This document shows positions 10,411 through 16,781 of a stretch of DNA of 64,000 bases, in pieces. The position numbers and the translations under genes were made by a program. Each line of letters starts with the position of its first letter. The stretch's first letter is position 1. The stretch comes from Myxococcales bacterium. GTDB lineage: Bacteria; Myxococcota_A; UBA9042; JABWCM01; BTVJ01. The DNA is taken from positions 128,001 through 192,000 of the forward strand of contig BTVJ01000001.1 of NCBI GenBank assembly GCA_045863395.1, given 5' to 3'. The notes under the pieces are model-generated. The model did no database searches and was not told where the DNA came from. It was given only the letters and a program-made list of their open reading frames with translations.

Positions 10411-11469
10411 ATGGCGAGTGGCAAGAACGCGATCGGGCTGGACATCGGGTCTTCGTCCATCAAGATCATCCAGCTCAAGGAGACGTCCAAGGGCGTCCAC
10501 CTGCTGAGCTTCGACATGGCGCTCCTCCCGCCTGACGCGGTGGTCGACGGGGCCCTGATGAACTTCACTGCCATCGTCGAGAAGATCCGCGAGCTGTGCG
10601 CGGTGAACAAGATCCGCAACAAGGAGGTGGCCCTGTCGGTCAGCGGCCACAGCGTGATCATACGCAAGATCAGCCTGCCCGAGATGACGCCCGACGAGCT
10701 GGACGAGCAGATCCAGTGGGAGGCCGAGCAGTACATCCCCTTCGACATCAAGGACGTGAACGTCGACGTCCAGATCCTGAACCCCAAGGCGGGCCAGGGC
10801 CAGATGGACGTGCTGCTGGTCGCCGCCAAGAAGGACGTGATCAACGACTACGTCAACGTGGCCAGCGAGGCGGGCCTGCGCTCCGTGATCATGGACGTGG
10901 ACACGTTCACCATCCAGAACATGTTCGAGCTCAACTACGGCTTCCCGCCCAACGAGACCATCGCGCTCATCAACATCGGGGCGTCGGTGATCAACATCAA
11001 CGTCATCGCCAACGGCATGACCACCTTCACGCGCGACATCTCCATGGGCGGGCAGATGCTGACCGAGGAGATCCAGAAGCACCTGAACGTCGGCTATGAG
11101 GAGGCGGAGCACTACAAGACGGGCGGCGAGGGCACGATCAGCTCCTCGTCCATCTATCGCGAGGTGCAGAAGCTGGCGGAGCGGGTCAGCGAGACCCTGG
11201 TCACCGAGATCCAGCGCTCCTTGGATTTCTTCGCGGCGACGACCATCAACGCCGACATCTCCAAGATCTACCTCTCGGGCGGCTCGTCCCAGATCCCCGC
11301 CCTGATCCGCTCCCTGGAGCGCCGGCTGGAGGTCCCGGTGGAGCTGGTCAACCCGTTCAAGAACATCATCATCGATCCGAAGAAGTTTGACCTGGACCTG
11401 CTCCAGCGCATGGCGCCGGCCGCCGCGGTCGCCGTTGGCCTTGGGCTTCGGAGGCATGACGACAAATGA
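10411..11469 (+). CDS. pilM: Type IV pilus assembly protein PilM
   Basis: IGLDIGSSSIK, WEAEQYIPF, VLLVAAKK, INIGA, EIQRSLDFF, LSGGSS, AVAVGLGLR (FtsA/actin-like). Confidence 0.96.
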   Translation: MASGKNAIGLDIGSSSIKIIQLKETSKGVHLLSFDMALLPPDAVVDGALMNFTAIVEKIRELCAVNKIRNKEVALSVSGHSVIIRKISLPEMTPDELDEQIQWEAEQYIPFDIKDVNVDVQILNPKAGQGQMDVLLVAAKKDVINDYVNVASEAGLRSVIMDVDTFTIQNMFELNYGFPPNETIALINIGASVININVIANGMTTFTRDISMGGQMLTEEIQKHLNVGYEEAEHYKTGGEGTISSSSIYREVQKLAERVSETLVTEIQRSLDFFAATTINADISKIYLSGGSSQIPALIRSLERRLEVPVELVNPFKNIIIDPKKFDLDLLQRMAPAAAVAVGLGLRRHDDK

Positions 11470-11492
11470 TCGGGATGGTCGGGATGCTGGCG

Positions 11493-12158
11493 ATGATCAA
11501 GATCAACCTGCTCGCGGCGAAGACGCGGAAGCCGGTGACGGGCGGCCGCAGCGTCCTCGCGCTGTTCCTCCTGCTGCTGCTGGCGGAGGGCGCCGGGCTC
11601 TATGTCTGGTACGACGCGGTCGACGAGCGCGTCAAGGCGGAGAACGCCAAGATCAAGGACCTGGAGGAGAAGGTCGCCGAGCTCAACAAGGTCAAGGCGA
11701 AGATGGAGGAGCGCGAGCAGAACAAGGCCACGCTCGCGAAGCAGAACATCGTCTTCGAGGAGCTCAAGTACGACAAGGCGGGCCCCGCCAACATGCTCCT
11801 GTTCCTGACCTACGTGGTCACGAAGAAGGAGGACAACGTCTACAACCAGGAAGAGATCAAGGCCCAGGAGGACGCCGGCTGGGACATGTCCTGGGACCCG
11901 GACCGGCTCTGGATCACCTCCTTCGACGAGAAGGACAAGGAGGTGAGCATCAAGGGCCGCGCGATCTCCCACGAGGACGTCGCCCAGTTCTACTCACGCC
12001 TGTCGTCGTCGGTCTACTTCTACGACGTGCAGCCACAGGTCCAGGAGCGAAAGTTCAACACCGATCTGGACGTGAAGTTCGTCGAGTTCGCTGTGGACGC
12101 GAAGGCCAACTATGACACCGAGGGCGTCCCGCAGGTGGCGGCGGCTGCGCCGAAATAG
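11493..12158 (+). CDS. pilN: Type IV pilus assembly protein PilN (alternative start at 11466)
   Basis: N-terminal MIKINLL PilM-binding motif, one TM helix, coiled coil, P..LWITSF core; follows pilM. Confidence 0.88.
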   Translation: MIKINLLAAKTRKPVTGGRSVLALFLLLLLAEGAGLYVWYDAVDERVKAENAKIKDLEEKVAELNKVKAKMEEREQNKATLAKQNIVFEELKYDKAGPANMLLFLTYVVTKKEDNVYNQEEIKAQEDAGWDMSWDPDRLWITSFDEKDKEVSIKGRAISHEDVAQFYSRLSSSVYFYDVQPQVQERKFNTDLDVKFVEFAVDAKANYDTEGVPQVAAAAPK

Positions 12159-12215
12159 CGGCCCGGTCAGCGGACCCGCGCCACCGAGACGCGCAAGGGG
12201 CCGCCAGGAGAGAGC

Positions 12216-12956
12216 ATGGATCGGTTTGACGCACTGCCGCTGCAACAGAAGCTGCTCCTGCTGACGGGGATCCTCCTCATGGTCGCGGGCGCCGCCTGGT
12301 TCTTTGGCATCTCCCCTCTCGAGGCGAAGGTCGGCGGTGCGAAGGGCAAGCAGAAGAAGCTCTCGCAGGACCACCAGGCGCTCGCGCAGTACCGCCAGAA
12401 GGAGAAGCTGGCAAAGCTGGACGAGGAGGAGCAGAACGAGATCGCGAAGATCGAGGAGAACAAGAAGCAGCTCCCCACCGAGGACCAGCTCCCCGAGTTC
12501 ATCCAGTCCATCAAGTCCGACGCAGACGTGGCGGGTCTCGAGATCATGAAGTTCGATGTCGGCAATCGGGAGCTGGAGGACTACTACGCGAGGGTCCCCG
12601 TCAGCATCCGTGTCATCGGGACGTCGCAGCAGCTCATCACCTTCCTCAAGACCCTGGCCGAGCCGAACCGGCGCATCGTCAATGTGGCGAACCTGCGCAT
12701 CAGCCGCATCTCGTCGAACAACACCAAGCTCCAGACCCTCATCGGCGAGACCGACGAGATGCGGGCGCTGCGAAACCTGGCAAAGACCCGGGCGCTGACG
12801 CCCCAGGAGTCGCGGGCGCTGAAGATCGTCGAATACGAGGCCAACAGCAAGCTGGCGCTCATCCAGGCGGATTTCACGGCGTACGCGTTCAGCTACACGG
12901 GCGAGCCCGCGCCCGCCGACTCCAAGAAAAAGAAGAAGGCGAGGAAGGCAAAGTGA
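12216..12956 (+). CDS. pilO: Type IV pilus assembly protein PilO
   Basis: TM helix, coiled coil, QLP...QLPEF, GLEI.KF, YYARVPVSI, RRIVNV.NL.I; GGAG RBS. Confidence 0.88.
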   Translation: MDRFDALPLQQKLLLLTGILLMVAGAAWFFGISPLEAKVGGAKGKQKKLSQDHQALAQYRQKEKLAKLDEEEQNEIAKIEENKKQLPTEDQLPEFIQSIKSDADVAGLEIMKFDVGNRELEDYYARVPVSIRVIGTSQQLITFLKTLAEPNRRIVNVANLRISRISSNNTKLQTLIGETDEMRALRNLAKTRALTPQESRALKIVEYEANSKLALIQADFTAYAFSYTGEPAPADSKKKKKARKAK

Positions 12957-13660
12957 GGCTGCCACTGATTGTGCGCTCCATGCGCCAGGTGATGGTGATC
13001 GCCCCGCTCGCCCTGGGGATCACCGTGGTGCTCGCCGGGTGTGGCGACGACTCCGGCCCCAAGATGACCGGATCCGGTCCCCCGCAGCGGCCTGGTGGCC
13101 CTCCCAAGCGGGACGCCGGCGCCGGAGCGGCGCCCGCGGCGACGGCCGTGGTGAAGGTCCCGAACCCTCGGTGGGAGACGCTCAAGCCCTACTTCGACAA
13201 GTTCATCAACCAGCCGCTCCAGACCCACAAGGACACGTTCCGAGACAACCTGGTCAAGCACGTCCCCAAGGTGGACCTCCCGGCCCTGCAGGCGCCTCCC
13301 GAGGAGCTCCCCGCCGTCGAGGAGGTCGCGCCGGCGGTGGACGAGGTCACGGCGGGACCCCTGGAGCGGTACGGCACCACCGAGTACCAGCTCGTCATGA
13401 TCCTGAGCGGCACGGTGGTGCCCAAGGCCGTGGTCATCGACCCCATCGGGAACGCGTGGGTGGTGAACAAGGACAATCGGTTCGGCAACAAGAACGGCAT
13501 CGTCCAGAACATCACGCAGTACGCCATGATCATCCAGGAACCGGAGCGGGACGCGCCCATCGAGAAGACCATCAAGCCCGCCATCTTCGACGTGGCCGTC
13601 GACATCATGACCAGCGGCGACGGGGACCAGCGGCTCACGGCGGCCCCCATCGTCCGCTGA
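12953..13660 (+). CDS. pilP: Type IV pilus assembly lipoprotein PilP
   Basis: Lipobox LAGC; PLERY..TEYQLV.I.SG...PKAVV.DP.G...G...G.V..I; GTGA overlap with pilO. Confidence 0.88.
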   Translation: MRLPLIVRSMRQVMVIAPLALGITVVLAGCGDDSGPKMTGSGPPQRPGGPPKRDAGAGAAPAATAVVKVPNPRWETLKPYFDKFINQPLQTHKDTFRDNLVKHVPKVDLPALQAPPEELPAVEEVAPAVDEVTAGPLERYGTTEYQLVMILSGTVVPKAVVIDPIGNAWVVNKDNRFGNKNGIVQNITQYAMIIQEPERDAPIEKTIKPAIFDVAVDIMTSGDGDQRLTAAPIVR

Positions 13661-13666
13661 CGCCGC

Positions 13667-14455
13667 CTACGGCGCCTGCGCGGGCTGGAGCTCCTGCTTG
13701 CGCAGCTCCTGCTGGCGGGGCTGCACGGCCGCCCACTTCCACCCAGACGGGGGCTCCGTCTCGTAGCCGCGGGGGCAGGCGTCGAAGCCCGGGTCGTCCG
13801 CCATCAGCACCACGTCGCCGCCGTCACCCTCGCGCCAGCACAGGCGGGACGTGCGGTACGCGAACACCGCGGCAGGGCTGACGGTGAAGCTGTTGGTCTC
13901 GCCGAGCCGCGTGGTCAGCGTGATGTTGCCCGACTCGGAGAGCAGGCCCGTGACGTCCAGGTTCGCCGTCGTGTTGCGGAGCACCTCGTAGTCGACCACC
14001 ACGGCCGCCCCCGTGACGAGGCGGGTCAGGCCGCGGTTCTTCTCGATGTACTTCTGACACTTGGGGGACATTCCCTGGCGGAGCCGCTCCGTGAGCTCCA
14101 CGGGGTTCACGGAGAAGATCAGGAGGGACATCTTCTCCAGCTCCTCCCGGGTGTAGCCGAGCGCGGCGCCGATGCTCGACAGGGTCGCCTTGTCGCCGAA
14201 GGCCGTCAGGACCGCCTTGATCTGTGGCATCCGGGCGTCGACGCTCGCGTCCACCTCTCGGACACCGCACTCCGACAGGAAGGCCCCCCGCTGGAACGCG
14301 TAGTCTGAGGTGTCGCCCTTGATGCCCACGTTGCCGAGCTGCGCCTGCATGGCAGCGTTCTTGCGGAAGGGCACGTTCTGATAGGCGAACCACGGGCCGC
14401 CGCAGCCGGCCGTCGCTGCGATCAGGGCCGCCAGGATGGCGATTCGTCCGCTCAC
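13667..14455 (-). CDS. Hypothetical lipoprotein with possible gasdermin-like beta-rich fold
   Basis: GGAG RBS and GTG start, lipobox TAGC, strong GC3 coding bias. The fold call is inference (see findings). Confidence 0.7.
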   Translation of the reverse strand: MSGRIAILAALIAATAGCGGPWFAYQNVPFRKNAAMQAQLGNVGIKGDTSDYAFQRGAFLSECGVREVDASVDARMPQIKAVLTAFGDKATLSSIGAALGYTREELEKMSLLIFSVNPVELTERLRQGMSPKCQKYIEKNRGLTRLVTGAAVVVDYEVLRNTTANLDVTGLLSESGNITLTTRLGETNSFTVSPAAVFAYRTSRLCWREGDGGDVVLMADDPGFDACPRGYETEPPSGWKWAAVQPRQQELRKQELQPAQAP

Positions 14456-14527
14456 GTGTCACTCCGGCGCGTTGTGGGTCGCGGCGTGTCGACGCCTTCG
14501 ACCGGGAGGCCCGCATTGGGGAGCCGC

Positions 14528-14579: not shown

Positions 14580-16781
14580 ATGAGCTCCGCGCGCCGCCTG
14601 GCGGTCGCCCTGCTGTCCCTGCTCGTCGCGACGGAGGCATCGGCCGCCTCGCTGGGCACCGTGCTGGACGCCGCGCCCTGGTCCCGGGCGCGCGCCCTGT
14701 CCGTCTCGGTGCTCGTGGAGGGGCGGGAGCCCCACGGAGAAGGAGACGCCGCGCTGGTCGCCCAGGCTCGCGCGGAGCTGCTCACGGCGGCGCGACCGCG
14801 GCGAGTGCGCCTGGATCTCCTTGGACACACCGCTCCCCGGGCCCGCTTCTCCCGACTGCTGGAGCTGAACCTGGTGCCCGTGGGGGGAGGCGCCCGCTTC
14901 GTCGTGGACGCGACGTACTACGACCTGGTACCACGCCCCGAGGGTGGCTACCACGCGACTGGCCGCACCATTCGCCCCGCAGCCGGCGGCGCGATGACGA
15001 CGCGTGTGGAGATGGCCTTGTCGCCACCTCCTCCCTCGGACCGGGCCGCAGCGCTGGCCACGCACGAGCAAGCGCTGCGGGACCGGGCGGCGTCCAGAGC
15101 CCACAGGACGCGGGCCCTCGTCGTCAACGGCGAGTTCTCGGAGGCGCCGGGTGATCGTCGTGGCGTCGCCGGCCTCCCTACCACGCGAGAGAGCCTGGAG
15201 GGCTTGGTTCTACGAGCGTTCGACGACGAACTGGCTCCATTTGCCCTCATCTACGCGGAGAGCGCCTACAACGTCCGAAATCGCTTCGTCGAGACCGTGG
15301 ATCGCATCTCCGAGGCTGCCGATGGTGCCCTGCCCGAGTGGTGGGACGGACGCCCCCCAGAGGGGGTGCGGCGGCTCCGGGCCACCGACGAGACCATCGA
15401 GGAGCGCCCCTGGTACGCGACGGACGGCCCGCGCTGGGCCCCCTACTGGGAGCGCGTCGGGCCCCGCCGGGAGGCGGTGGTCGCCGCCATGGAGGAGTTC
15501 GTCGACGGGGGAGGGCTGCTCGTCATGGAGGACGAGCACTGCGGAGAGGAGCCGCTCGCCGGCATCGTCCCCCTGCGCTGTGTGGAGCAGGAGGAGCCGG
15601 CGCGCATCGATCTCCGCCCCGCTGACGGCAGCGCCCGCCCCGAGCGGGTGAGCGTCCGGTCGGCGCTCTGGAGCCGCATCTCCTCCCAGGAGCCCGACGC
15701 GACGTGCCAGCCGCTGGTCGTGGCCGAGGACCGGCGCCGCTGGCCAGAGCCGCTGGCGGTGCGCTGCGACCGCCCCGAGGGAGGCATCGCCCTGTTCACG
15801 TCCTTCCACGCCGACGATCTGGCGCGGGACGGCGCTCTGGCCCAGGCACTGTATGGGGGCGGCGCGACCCCCTCCGCGCTCGAGGCCGCGCTCATCGACG
15901 CCCCGCTCTCGGGGCCCGCGCTCCAGGCGGTCCGGCCGGACGGCAGCCTCGTGACGCCCGTGGTCGTGGACCGAGCTGCGGTGCGCCTGGGCGAGAACGC
16001 GACGGCGGCCGAAGGCGAGCCCGCGCTGGACCAGCGTGCCTCCCTCGGCATCTACGTGGACGCCGGGGAGCTCGGCTACGCGCAGGTGGGCTTCCGCAAC
16101 GGCCCGCTGCGCGCCGAGCTGCGCGCGCCCAACGGGGCCGTGGTCGCGGCGCGCGAGGCCAGCACGGGGCCCCTGCTGCTGGACCTGCACGGCCGCCCGA
16201 GAGGGCTCTACGAGCTCCGCCTTGCCGGGACGGGCTCCGTCACGGTACAGCACCTGTCGACGGTCCCGCGGCAACGCTGGACGGGCGCCACCGTGGCGGC
16301 GTGGGGCGCGCAGCGAACCGACGCGGTGGTCATCGACGGGTTCGCGCGGGGCGCCGCGGGCCTGCCACCCGGTGCGCTCGGGCGCCTCCCCACCGAGGCG
16401 GCGACCCTGGCGCGCCTTGCCATGCCCACAGAGGGGGCGGTGCTGGTCATCGAGGGGCACACTTCGGAGGACGGGAGCGCCCGCGCCAACGCCAGGCTCT
16501 CCCTCCGCCGTGCTGCGTGGGCCGCCGGGGTGCTGGCGAGCGCGCTGGAGGCGGCGACGGGGACCGCCTGCACCGTAGACGGCCGGACGTGTGCCTCGTG
16601 GGCCAGGAGCCTCACTCGCGAGGACGCGGAGACCGACGCGGTGCTCCGCCTCGGCAACGCCCCACTCCGCGTCTCCCTCCGCCCCCTCGGAGCCGCAGCC
16701 CCCCGGGACGTCTGCGGGCCCCGGGACGAGCCCTGCCTCCAGCGGAGCCGGCGCGTGGTGGTGTGGCTCTCCCGCCAGTGA
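14580..16781 (+). CDS. Secreted multidomain protein with C-terminal OmpA-like domain
   Basis: AGGAGG RBS, signal peptide, central EFVDGGGLLV (GATase-like fold), C-terminal IEGHTSEDG...N.RLSLRRA ... RSRRV. Confidence 0.65.
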   Translation: MSSARRLAVALLSLLVATEASAASLGTVLDAAPWSRARALSVSVLVEGREPHGEGDAALVAQARAELLTAARPRRVRLDLLGHTAPRARFSRLLELNLVPVGGGARFVVDATYYDLVPRPEGGYHATGRTIRPAAGGAMTTRVEMALSPPPPSDRAAALATHEQALRDRAASRAHRTRALVVNGEFSEAPGDRRGVAGLPTTRESLEGLVLRAFDDELAPFALIYAESAYNVRNRFVETVDRISEAADGALPEWWDGRPPEGVRRLRATDETIEERPWYATDGPRWAPYWERVGPRREAVVAAMEEFVDGGGLLVMEDEHCGEEPLAGIVPLRCVEQEEPARIDLRPADGSARPERVSVRSALWSRISSQEPDATCQPLVVAEDRRRWPEPLAVRCDRPEGGIALFTSFHADDLARDGALAQALYGGGATPSALEAALIDAPLSGPALQAVRPDGSLVTPVVVDRAAVRLGENATAAEGEPALDQRASLGIYVDAGELGYAQVGFRNGPLRAELRAPNGAVVAAREASTGPLLLDLHGRPRGLYELRLAGTGSVTVQHLSTVPRQRWTGATVAAWGAQRTDAVVIDGFARGAAGLPPGALGRLPTEAATLARLAMPTEGAVLVIEGHTSEDGSARANARLSLRRAAWAAGVLASALEAATGTACTVDGRTCASWARSLTREDAETDAVLRLGNAPLRVSLRPLGAAAPRDVCGPRDEPCLQRSRRVVVWLSRQ

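Follow-up and report, generated by a model that had tools for sequence, protein, structure and literature searches.

The window analysed here, a stretch of 64,000 nucleotides, carries on its minus strand a gene for a 262-residue protein with a predicted gasdermin fold and the N-terminal signature of a lipoprotein (Table 1). The open reading frame at 13667-14455 is a real gene with native codon use. Its GC3 is 0.95 and its codon-adaptation value of 0.81 is similar to those of clpA, pilM and pilN (0.82-0.83), compared to 0.33 and 0.22 for the two frames that overlap it, and the plus strand across the same positions contains a stop codon. Translation begins at a GTG codon, and no sigma-70 promoter or terminator pattern was found for the gene. 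Contigs from RNA libraries (sludge, wastewater) covered parts of it in three of four runs. As DNA carry-over is possible, and one of the covering contigs is a flat 6-kb contig spanning all genes, this coverage does not establish transcription. The host genome, from a sludge bacterium (8.8 Mb, 71% GC), is 97% complete, and no 16S primer site was found in the assembly. Its phylum is probably Myxococcota, as two related loci carry this label and a protein from a genome of the same phylum (L009) is identical to one labelled Myxococcales at NCBI. A recent horizontal arrival of the gene was rejected because its codon use is native. A viral origin was also rejected, as the 262-aa protein had no match in BFVD under E 0.001 and none in phages. 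A plasmid collection searched with a relative (P0023) gave no match.

Table 1. Features of the 262-aa protein gene and its immediate neighbours (positions in the window).
Feature	Position	Strand	Remarks
pilP-like gene	12953..13660	+	end of pilMNOP run; convergent, 6-nt gap; context only
Gene of the 262-aa gasdermin-fold lipoprotein (P0001/P0002)	13667..14455	-	single copy in genome
Free variable tail (residues 240-262)	13670..13738	-	helix here; relatives have an acidic tail or none
Residues 206-238, last hairpin and loop	13742..13840	-	putative Cys206-Cys227 disulfide; within the fold and one predicted oligomer face
SFTVSPAAVFAYRTSRL (residues 189-205)	13841..13891	-	aligned to late gasdermin strand
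Finger 2 (residues 157-193)	13877..13987	-	amphipathic beta pattern kept
Core strand RLVTGAAVV (residues 145-153)	13997..14023	-	profile-aligned to gasdermin (Y/F)VVT strand
Cys133	14057..14059	-	putative disulfide partner of Cys63
Finger 1 (residues 76-110)	14126..14230	-	three helices in model; no beta alternation in clade A
Cys63	14267..14269	-	putatively paired with Cys133 in a disulfide; restricted to clade A
Signal peptide (residues 1-17) and lipobox TAGC	14402..14455	-	SPase II rules; Cys18 putatively the lipidated first residue
Probable ribosome-binding site GGAG	14462..14465	-	6 nt upstream of GTG start
733-aa ORF	14580..16781	+	divergent; weak C-terminal OmpA-like match; context only

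A sequence-only reading had described the neighbouring 733-aa frame as an OmpA-domain gene. The divergent arrangement holds, but the OmpA match covers 39 residues at E 6.6e-5 and scores 23.6 bits, under the cut-off of 27.2. No relative examined has an OmpA-like gene beside it, and a functional link is not supported. The 733-aa protein looks exported, and its remaining 600 residues have no Pfam or NCBIfam family. Reads from related strains show many differing sites in 14600-15030, whereas the gasdermin-like gene has far fewer. On the other side, the pilMNOP run (window 10411-13660) has no pilQ directly after it. The 262-aa protein gene, which follows pilP in the common place of pilQ, was considered as a secretin substitute, and this was rejected because a PilQ-like secretin (G000:C1:196340-201166, a frame of 1608 codons) is encoded on this contig at a distance of about 55 kb, adjoining a PilB/GspE-like ATPase gene. 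No relative examined is flanked by pil genes.

A sequence search returned six close relatives, the 262-aa protein itself included, then 29 representatives, one of them spurious (P0010, a 4220-aa repeat protein, was dropped as a spurious match), and more were found by profile. None of the relatives carried an informative name. Fragments P0013, P0016, P0018, P0026 and P0029 were used in profile A2 and kept out of the tree and the conservation counts. The counts below refer to 59 rows (18 in clade A, 24 in group B, 17 in clade C), which are not independent because near-copies are included (P0059 and L009 are identical). The tree of these rows was a quick version, midpoint-rooted and without a bGSDM outgroup, so that no direction of evolution is readable from it. 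Clade A, which contains the 262-aa protein, had an SH-aLRT support of 100 and a branch length of 1.38. The group B rows are lipoproteins that do not form a single clade. Clade C (support 98) lacks both the lipobox Cys and the tail, and its full-length rows have SPase I-type leaders, as judged by eye. Clade A rows range in charge from +2 to -20 (neutral to acidic), and 16 of the 17 clade C rows are strongly basic (+22 to +47). Gly44, Arg145, Tyr200, Trp207 and Asp220 are common to all three groups, with Arg145, Tyr200 and Trp207 nearly invariant.

The family was present in 10 of the 401 genomes sampled from the phylum and in none of the 106 other genomes sampled from the class. A clade A gene occurred in one of the 401, the host genome itself; that search otherwise gave one weak group B match. 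The family is probably much larger than the sampled rows, as the ESM Atlas holds unnamed clusters of 88-285 members, mostly Pseudomonadota, with feature scores of 0.95-0.96; one of these was auto-named putative lipoprotein. L002 and L003 are near-identical loci labelled Myxococcota and Bdellovibrionales, so that one label is probably wrong. The clade C members (L007-L011, L031, L032, P0059-P0063 and P0065-P0071) come from Myxococcota and are secreted, with Gly/Ser/Thr-rich fingers; they look better pore-former candidates than the 262-aa protein. L034:1495-2205 (-) encodes a 236-aa family member that has no evident signal peptide, lacks the Cys tail and matches Pfam Gasdermin at E 0.0056. It is a possible cytoplasmic form, and no protease was seen beside its gene.

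A survey of gene neighbourhoods, which the sequence-only reading had proposed, revealed no protease partner. Catalytic protease families were absent from all 37 flanking ORFs at 19 related loci, where flanks were often ≤1.5 kb and several loci were close kin; one ORF encodes a non-catalytic Lon substrate-binding domain. Nor did these ORFs include a recurring small partner that could be a candidate immunity protein, and no mobile-element or defence-island setting was seen at the loci examined. Neighbours vary by lineage (cytochrome oxidase subunit IV, FHA, metallo-beta-lactamase-fold, DsbA-like, TetR, AraC and acyl-CoA ligase, among others), and clade A genes lie among housekeeping genes. Elsewhere in the host genome, four caspase-family (C14) genes and CHAT genes are found on other contigs, unlinked to the 262-aa protein gene. 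Three of the four caspase-family genes (G000:C75:7654-8337, C39:13863-14261, C84:28458-28919) have signal-peptide-like N-termini by eye, and their products are possibly exported. A search for canonical bGSDMs at E 0.001 found none in this genome, none in 301 genomes of the phylum and none among the controls; having matched no control either, it is uninformative on bGSDM absence.

The N-terminus of the 262-aa protein has the features of an exported lipoprotein. The lipobox T15-A-G-C18 comes after a hydrophobic stretch, which bears out the TAGC motif and the mature length of about 245 aa given by the sequence-only reading (Cys18, 245 aa). A simple lipobox pattern matches 226 of the 4047 coding-like ORFs in the same genome (5.6%), so that a single match means little and the real support is conservation. 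A lipobox-type Cys is present in all 18 clade A rows, and 20 of the 24 group B rows have a Cys at this column, with three of the other four gapped. From this we infer that the protein is exported and lipidated.

The mature chain contains four further Cys residues (63, 133, 206 and 227), as had been noted before. Cys63 and Cys133 occur together in 18/18 clade A rows and in 0/24 group B rows. Cys206 and Cys227 occur together in 18/18 clade A, 23/24 group B and 0/17 clade C rows, and the one group B exception, P0024, has lost both. Since the members of each pair occur together, two disulfides, 63-133 and 206-227, probably stabilise the protein.

An AlphaFold2 model built from 39 alignment rows had a pLDDT of 89.6 and a pTM of 0.85. 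When it was compared with 48,161 solved chains, ranks 1 to 13 were all gasdermins (Z 5.3-8.1), led by GSDMD (Z 8.1, rmsd 3.9, 149 residues aligned; Z 8.2 in another comparison), with Runella bGSDM at Z 7.5 and RCD-1 at Z 7.2. Below these came cytolysin-type chains (Z 4.0-5.0) and one more bGSDM (4.6), and the first unrelated chain scored 3.2. The first Foldseek match was Vitiosangium bGSDM (E 6.7e-4), with a TM of only ~0.3. The model of a group B relative again placed gasdermins at ranks 1 to 13. Thus the twisted beta-sheet core of gasdermins is present in the predicted fold, and gasdermins rank above MACPF/CDC structures. On the scale of this search a Z of 7-8 is the typical best for models without a clear match, and such middling values mean that the gasdermin call needs evidence from sequence.

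This evidence came from the relatives. The 262-aa protein alone gave no gasdermin match in Pfam (PF04598 included), PDB or PADLOC and nothing in NCBIfam, and the clade A profile had no gasdermin match in PDB. Searched against PDB, however, profile A1 had GSDMD and GSDMA3 as the best seven of its 11 matches (best E 0.0032). Profile A4, built from the relatives without clade A and hence without the 262-aa protein, matched mouse GSDMD at E 1.4e-4 and the 262-aa protein gene at E 1.3e-31, and profiles A3 and A4 aligned end to end with a probability of 99.8. Relative P0070 scored 29.2 bits on Pfam Gasdermin PF04598 (cut-off 25), and P0065, P0059, L032 and L034 scored under the cut-off. Earlier, the resemblance had been called motif-level only. 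The structure search and the profiles of the relatives carry it further. Together they uphold the proposal of an exported lipoprotein with a gasdermin fold, in which export is read from the conserved lipobox, and we consider gasdermin ancestry very probable. As a lead only, ESM Atlas feature matches to Bact_GSDM scored 0.84-0.86, under the bar of 0.9. A Trypco2-dominated cluster (PF19631, 76% of members, 265 aa) scored 0.85 against both the 262-aa protein and P0023, also under 0.9, and a link between Trypco2 and gasdermins is possible.

The core motifs noticed before, RLVTGAAVV and SFTVSPAAVFAYRTSRL, are both in place (Table 1). In the model, Cys18 is followed by a small beta-hairpin where gasdermins have the alpha-1 thumb helix. 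Two amphipathic beta-hairpin segments had been proposed, and the second stands. Finger 2 has a beta/helix moment ratio above 1 in 18/18 clade A, 20/24 group B and 17/17 clade C rows, and its column tests in clade A gave p=0.006 and 0.051. The first is not supported for the 262-aa protein and its clade. Finger 1 is three helices in the model, and its ratio exceeds 1 in 5/18 clade A rows, compared to 17/24 in group B and 10/17 in clade C. The beta column test for clade A gave p=0.76, and helical periodicity was also non-significant alone (p=0.11). Pro77 is present in 15, Phe86 in 18 and Gly100 in 17 of the 18 clade A rows, and Phe86-Gly87 is conserved. These features make insertion of finger 1 less likely, but the helical signal is non-significant and bGSDM fingers themselves start as helices, so that finger 1 may still insert. 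In four group B proteins (P0020, P0028, P0032, P0034), strand 1 of finger 1 looks helical and strand 2 keeps the beta pattern. The midpoint-rooted tree places them beside clade A, with a weak support of 28, and they are a possible intermediate stage.

The C-terminal part differs from what the sequence-only reading had described, namely a tail of about 50 aa, for which the short inhibitory peptide of bGSDMs was the model. A segment of 57 aa follows the RL motif, but its first ~30 residues superpose on the gasdermin body and only 240-262 are free. Residues 206-238 superpose on parts retained in the active GSDMD and GSDMA3 pore protomers (residue 236 corresponds to chain residues 241 and 233) and map to the gasdermin N-domain, although model residues 224-225 also align with residues 257-260 of the C-terminal peptide of full-length bGSDMs. 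Clade C chains end just past the equivalent of Asp220. Most of the supposed tail therefore probably belongs to the fold and is pinned by a disulfide, which makes a cleavable inhibitory peptide doubtful.

In oligomer modelling, three copies of residues 19-241 scored 0.76, compared to 0.00 for the best of three controls. In calibration 20 of 30 proteins solved as one-chain pairs came up to this mark, as did 1 of 23 solved as single chains, a comparison only roughly valid for three copies and a custom alignment. The runs agreed in at least 94% of contacts, with partner pLDDT of at least 85. The contacts form two non-overlapping faces and give an open head-to-tail chain, the arrangement that part of a ring should have, although the pass possibly stems from likeness to solved gasdermin rings. 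The predicted interface showed no excess conservation (0.55 and 0.57, compared to 0.55 elsewhere), and the trimer formed with 206-241 in place. Of the two strands of finger 2, one (162-168) lies on one face and the other (190-198) on the opposite face, so that a continuous sheet made from finger 2 alone would be possible; we regard this as a lead. In the literature that we compared, no such one-finger ring is described for gasdermins.

How does the protein compare to known systems? The bGSDMs (PDB 7N50, 7N51, 7N52, 8SL0; Z 4.6-7.7) have the same fold and a similar size, and helical proto-fingers are seen in both. Alignments start at model residues 15-18, which are of low confidence, against bGSDM residues 1-2, which would put Cys18 at the place of the N-terminal Cys of bGSDMs. 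In the available part of one study (10.1101/2023.04.20.537723), the palmitoylated residue of Vitiosangium bGSDM is Cys4 and bGSDM fingers arise by the refolding of helices. The bGSDM alpha-1 helix, as far as it is described in the available sources, carries the palmitoyl Cys, where our model has the beta-hairpin after Cys18, and the lipids would differ too (lipoprotein diacylglyceryl here, S-palmitoyl in bGSDM). Unlike the cytoplasmic bGSDMs, the 262-aa protein has a conserved signal peptide and lipobox, conserved Cys pairs, no neighbouring protease and no clear cleavable C-terminal peptide. The PADLOC bGSDM profile PDLC02986 did not match it at E up to 1 and matched 1 of 39 family rows (E 0.0007). 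Being exported and without a protease neighbour, the protein is not a bGSDM.

The recently reported pyroptolysins are 325-400 aa long and have a C-terminal cytolysin-type, Ig-like sterol-sensing domain (10.64898/2026.10.05.756811, available text). As far as that text goes, they share with the 262-aa protein a gasdermin fold outside the cell (putatively so in our case), a solitary gene, no protease and an origin in environmental Gram-negative bacteria. Unlike them, the 262-aa protein has a mature chain of 245 aa, and as its model contains no cytolysin domain it is not a pyroptolysin. In the available main text of the preprint (10.64898/2026.10.05.756811) the terms 'lipoprotein', 'disulfide' and 'secret-' do not occur, and signal peptides are mentioned for neighbours only. 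The N-domains of GSDMD, GSDMA3, GSDME, Trichoplax GSDM and RCD-1 gave the best structural (Z up to 8.2) and profile matches. Trichoplax GSDM and RCD-1 consist of the N-domain only and are cleavage-independent, according to the available part of PMC12547243. Animal and fungal gasdermins differ from the 262-aa protein in being cytoplasmic without a lipobox anchor, and GSDMD and GSDMA3 carry large inhibitory C-domains.

The closest precedent for a possible mode of action is the CDCL proteins of Bacteroidota, beta-barrel pore formers with SpII signals that act between bacteria (PMC11169675, PMC11952106, available parts); some antibacterial SpII-type CDCLs have no immunity gene (PMC11169675, available part). 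They share the SpII signal with the 262-aa protein and differ in their CDC fold (Z 4.0-5.3 here, under the gasdermins), their length of about 350-550 aa and their paired genes. In addition, as described in the available texts, CDCLs have an N-terminal propeptide that is cut by surface proteases. With its single-copy gene, its 262 aa and its gasdermin fold, the protein is not a CDCL either. Its mode of action might nevertheless be that of a CDCL built on a gasdermin core. We found no paper on exported gasdermin lipoproteins in openly searchable full text, although subscription papers or the pyroptolysin supplement could list some.

The reading that we prefer, at a probability just short of even, is that the protein is a pore effector that forms rings and acts on other cells. 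It draws on the predicted fold, the profile chain to gasdermins, the trimer pass, the amphipathic finger 2 and the refolding of helices known from bGSDM fingers. It would be exported and anchored in the envelope through its N-terminal lipid, as the lipobox suggests, and its disulfides would form in the periplasm. It would be carried on the surface or in vesicles and face outward, and on a suitable membrane its subunits are predicted to pack laterally in head-to-tail order and so build arcs or rings. By analogy with known gasdermins, finger 2 would insert into a foreign membrane, be it that of prey, a competitor or a grazer, and finger 1 might do so too if refolding is possible. The lipid may act as a membrane primer, the role of the palmitoylated N-terminal Cys in bGSDMs. 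The brake would be the folded helical finger 1 together with the disulfides, released on the target membrane, which seems likelier than a cleavable tail. A target outside the producer is favoured by the patchy spread (10/401 phylum genomes and 0/106 of the class, typical of conflict genes), the solitary genes, the existence of basic, secreted relatives, and the precedents set by pyroptolysins and CDCLs. Against this reading are the remodelled finger 1, the neutral to acidic charge of clade A, the housekeeping neighbours and the lack of an immunity gene, of a mobile-element context and of phage or plasmid matches. The middling Z and TM values, the missing direct sequence match, the beta-hairpin in place of the thumb helix and the ordinary conservation of the predicted interface also count against it.

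A second explanation, which we consider unlikely but the main rival, draws on the same remodelled finger, the neutral charge and the quiet surroundings of the gene. It holds that clade A proteins are tamed gasdermins, forming a non-lytic ring or a narrow channel from finger 2 only in their own envelope, with finger 1 locked as helices. Such a ring might serve as a scaffold, in vesicle shedding or as a small conduit. Clade A is a well-supported branch (SH-aLRT 100) that has a Cys pair to itself and whose finger 1 is helical and contains Pro; at contact level the trimer forms with finger 1 unextended and with the finger 2 strands on opposite faces; and the gene is single-copy, with native codon use, housekeeping neighbours and no immunity gene. 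Envelope housekeeping, however, fits poorly with one clade A gene in 401 phylum genomes and none in 106 relatives of the class. In addition, the fingers of bGSDMs normally refold from helices into strands (10.1101/2023.04.20.537723, available part), the helical signal of finger 1 is non-significant (p=0.11), and finger 2 residue pairs are absent among the contacts listed.

It is improbable that the protein is instead a gasdermin that kills its own producer from the periplasmic side, waiting in the envelope in oxidised, folded form until a phage enters, the envelope is damaged, the protein is reduced or an exported protease acts on it. The available part of PMC12547243 describes Trichoplax gasdermin as locked by disulfides and activated once these are reduced, but those disulfides link subunits. 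Self-killing would fit the four caspase-family genes on other contigs, of which three look signal-bearing at the N-terminus, and the failure to find a canonical bGSDM in this genome, but that search had no match anywhere at E 0.001 and so does not establish bGSDM absence. Defence-island and protease neighbours are lacking, and the soluble secreted relatives of clade C point outward. Least probable of all is a monomeric lipoprotein of gasdermin ancestry or topology that binds or adheres without membrane insertion or ring formation; the middling Z values, the TM of ~0.3, the lack of a direct sequence match and an interface that is not extra-conserved would suit it, but it sits badly with the independent sequence chain to gasdermins, the amphipathic finger 2 that has been kept and the trimer pass.

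A wider proposal is distinctly speculative and improbable: exported single-domain gasdermins would be protease-independent pore weapons of myxobacteria and other bacteria and the outward-facing ancestor of bGSDMs, which would have lost the signal peptide and turned the lipoprotein Cys into a palmitoylated one, with the clade A ring perhaps built from one finger, or two membrane strands, per subunit. In the available part of earlier work, gasdermin self-killing has likewise been proposed to descend from toxins aimed at other cells (10.1101/2023.04.20.537723).

What would such a family mean for the biology of gasdermins? To our knowledge, gasdermins were held to act solely from inside the cell. 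The only exception that we found, the pyroptolysins (preprint of October 2026), depends on a borrowed cytolysin domain, according to the available text. If gasdermin domains occur on their own with lipoprotein or secretion signals, the fold has been turned outward a second time, and independently. The family makes both the question of a toxin origin and that of the lipid on the N-terminal Cys of bGSDMs testable with small natural proteins. It also offers a natural series, from the basic, secreted clade C without Cys pairs, through group B lipoproteins with one pair, to clade A lipoproteins with two pairs and a helical finger, which serves the question of how a gasdermin stays off without an inhibitory domain.
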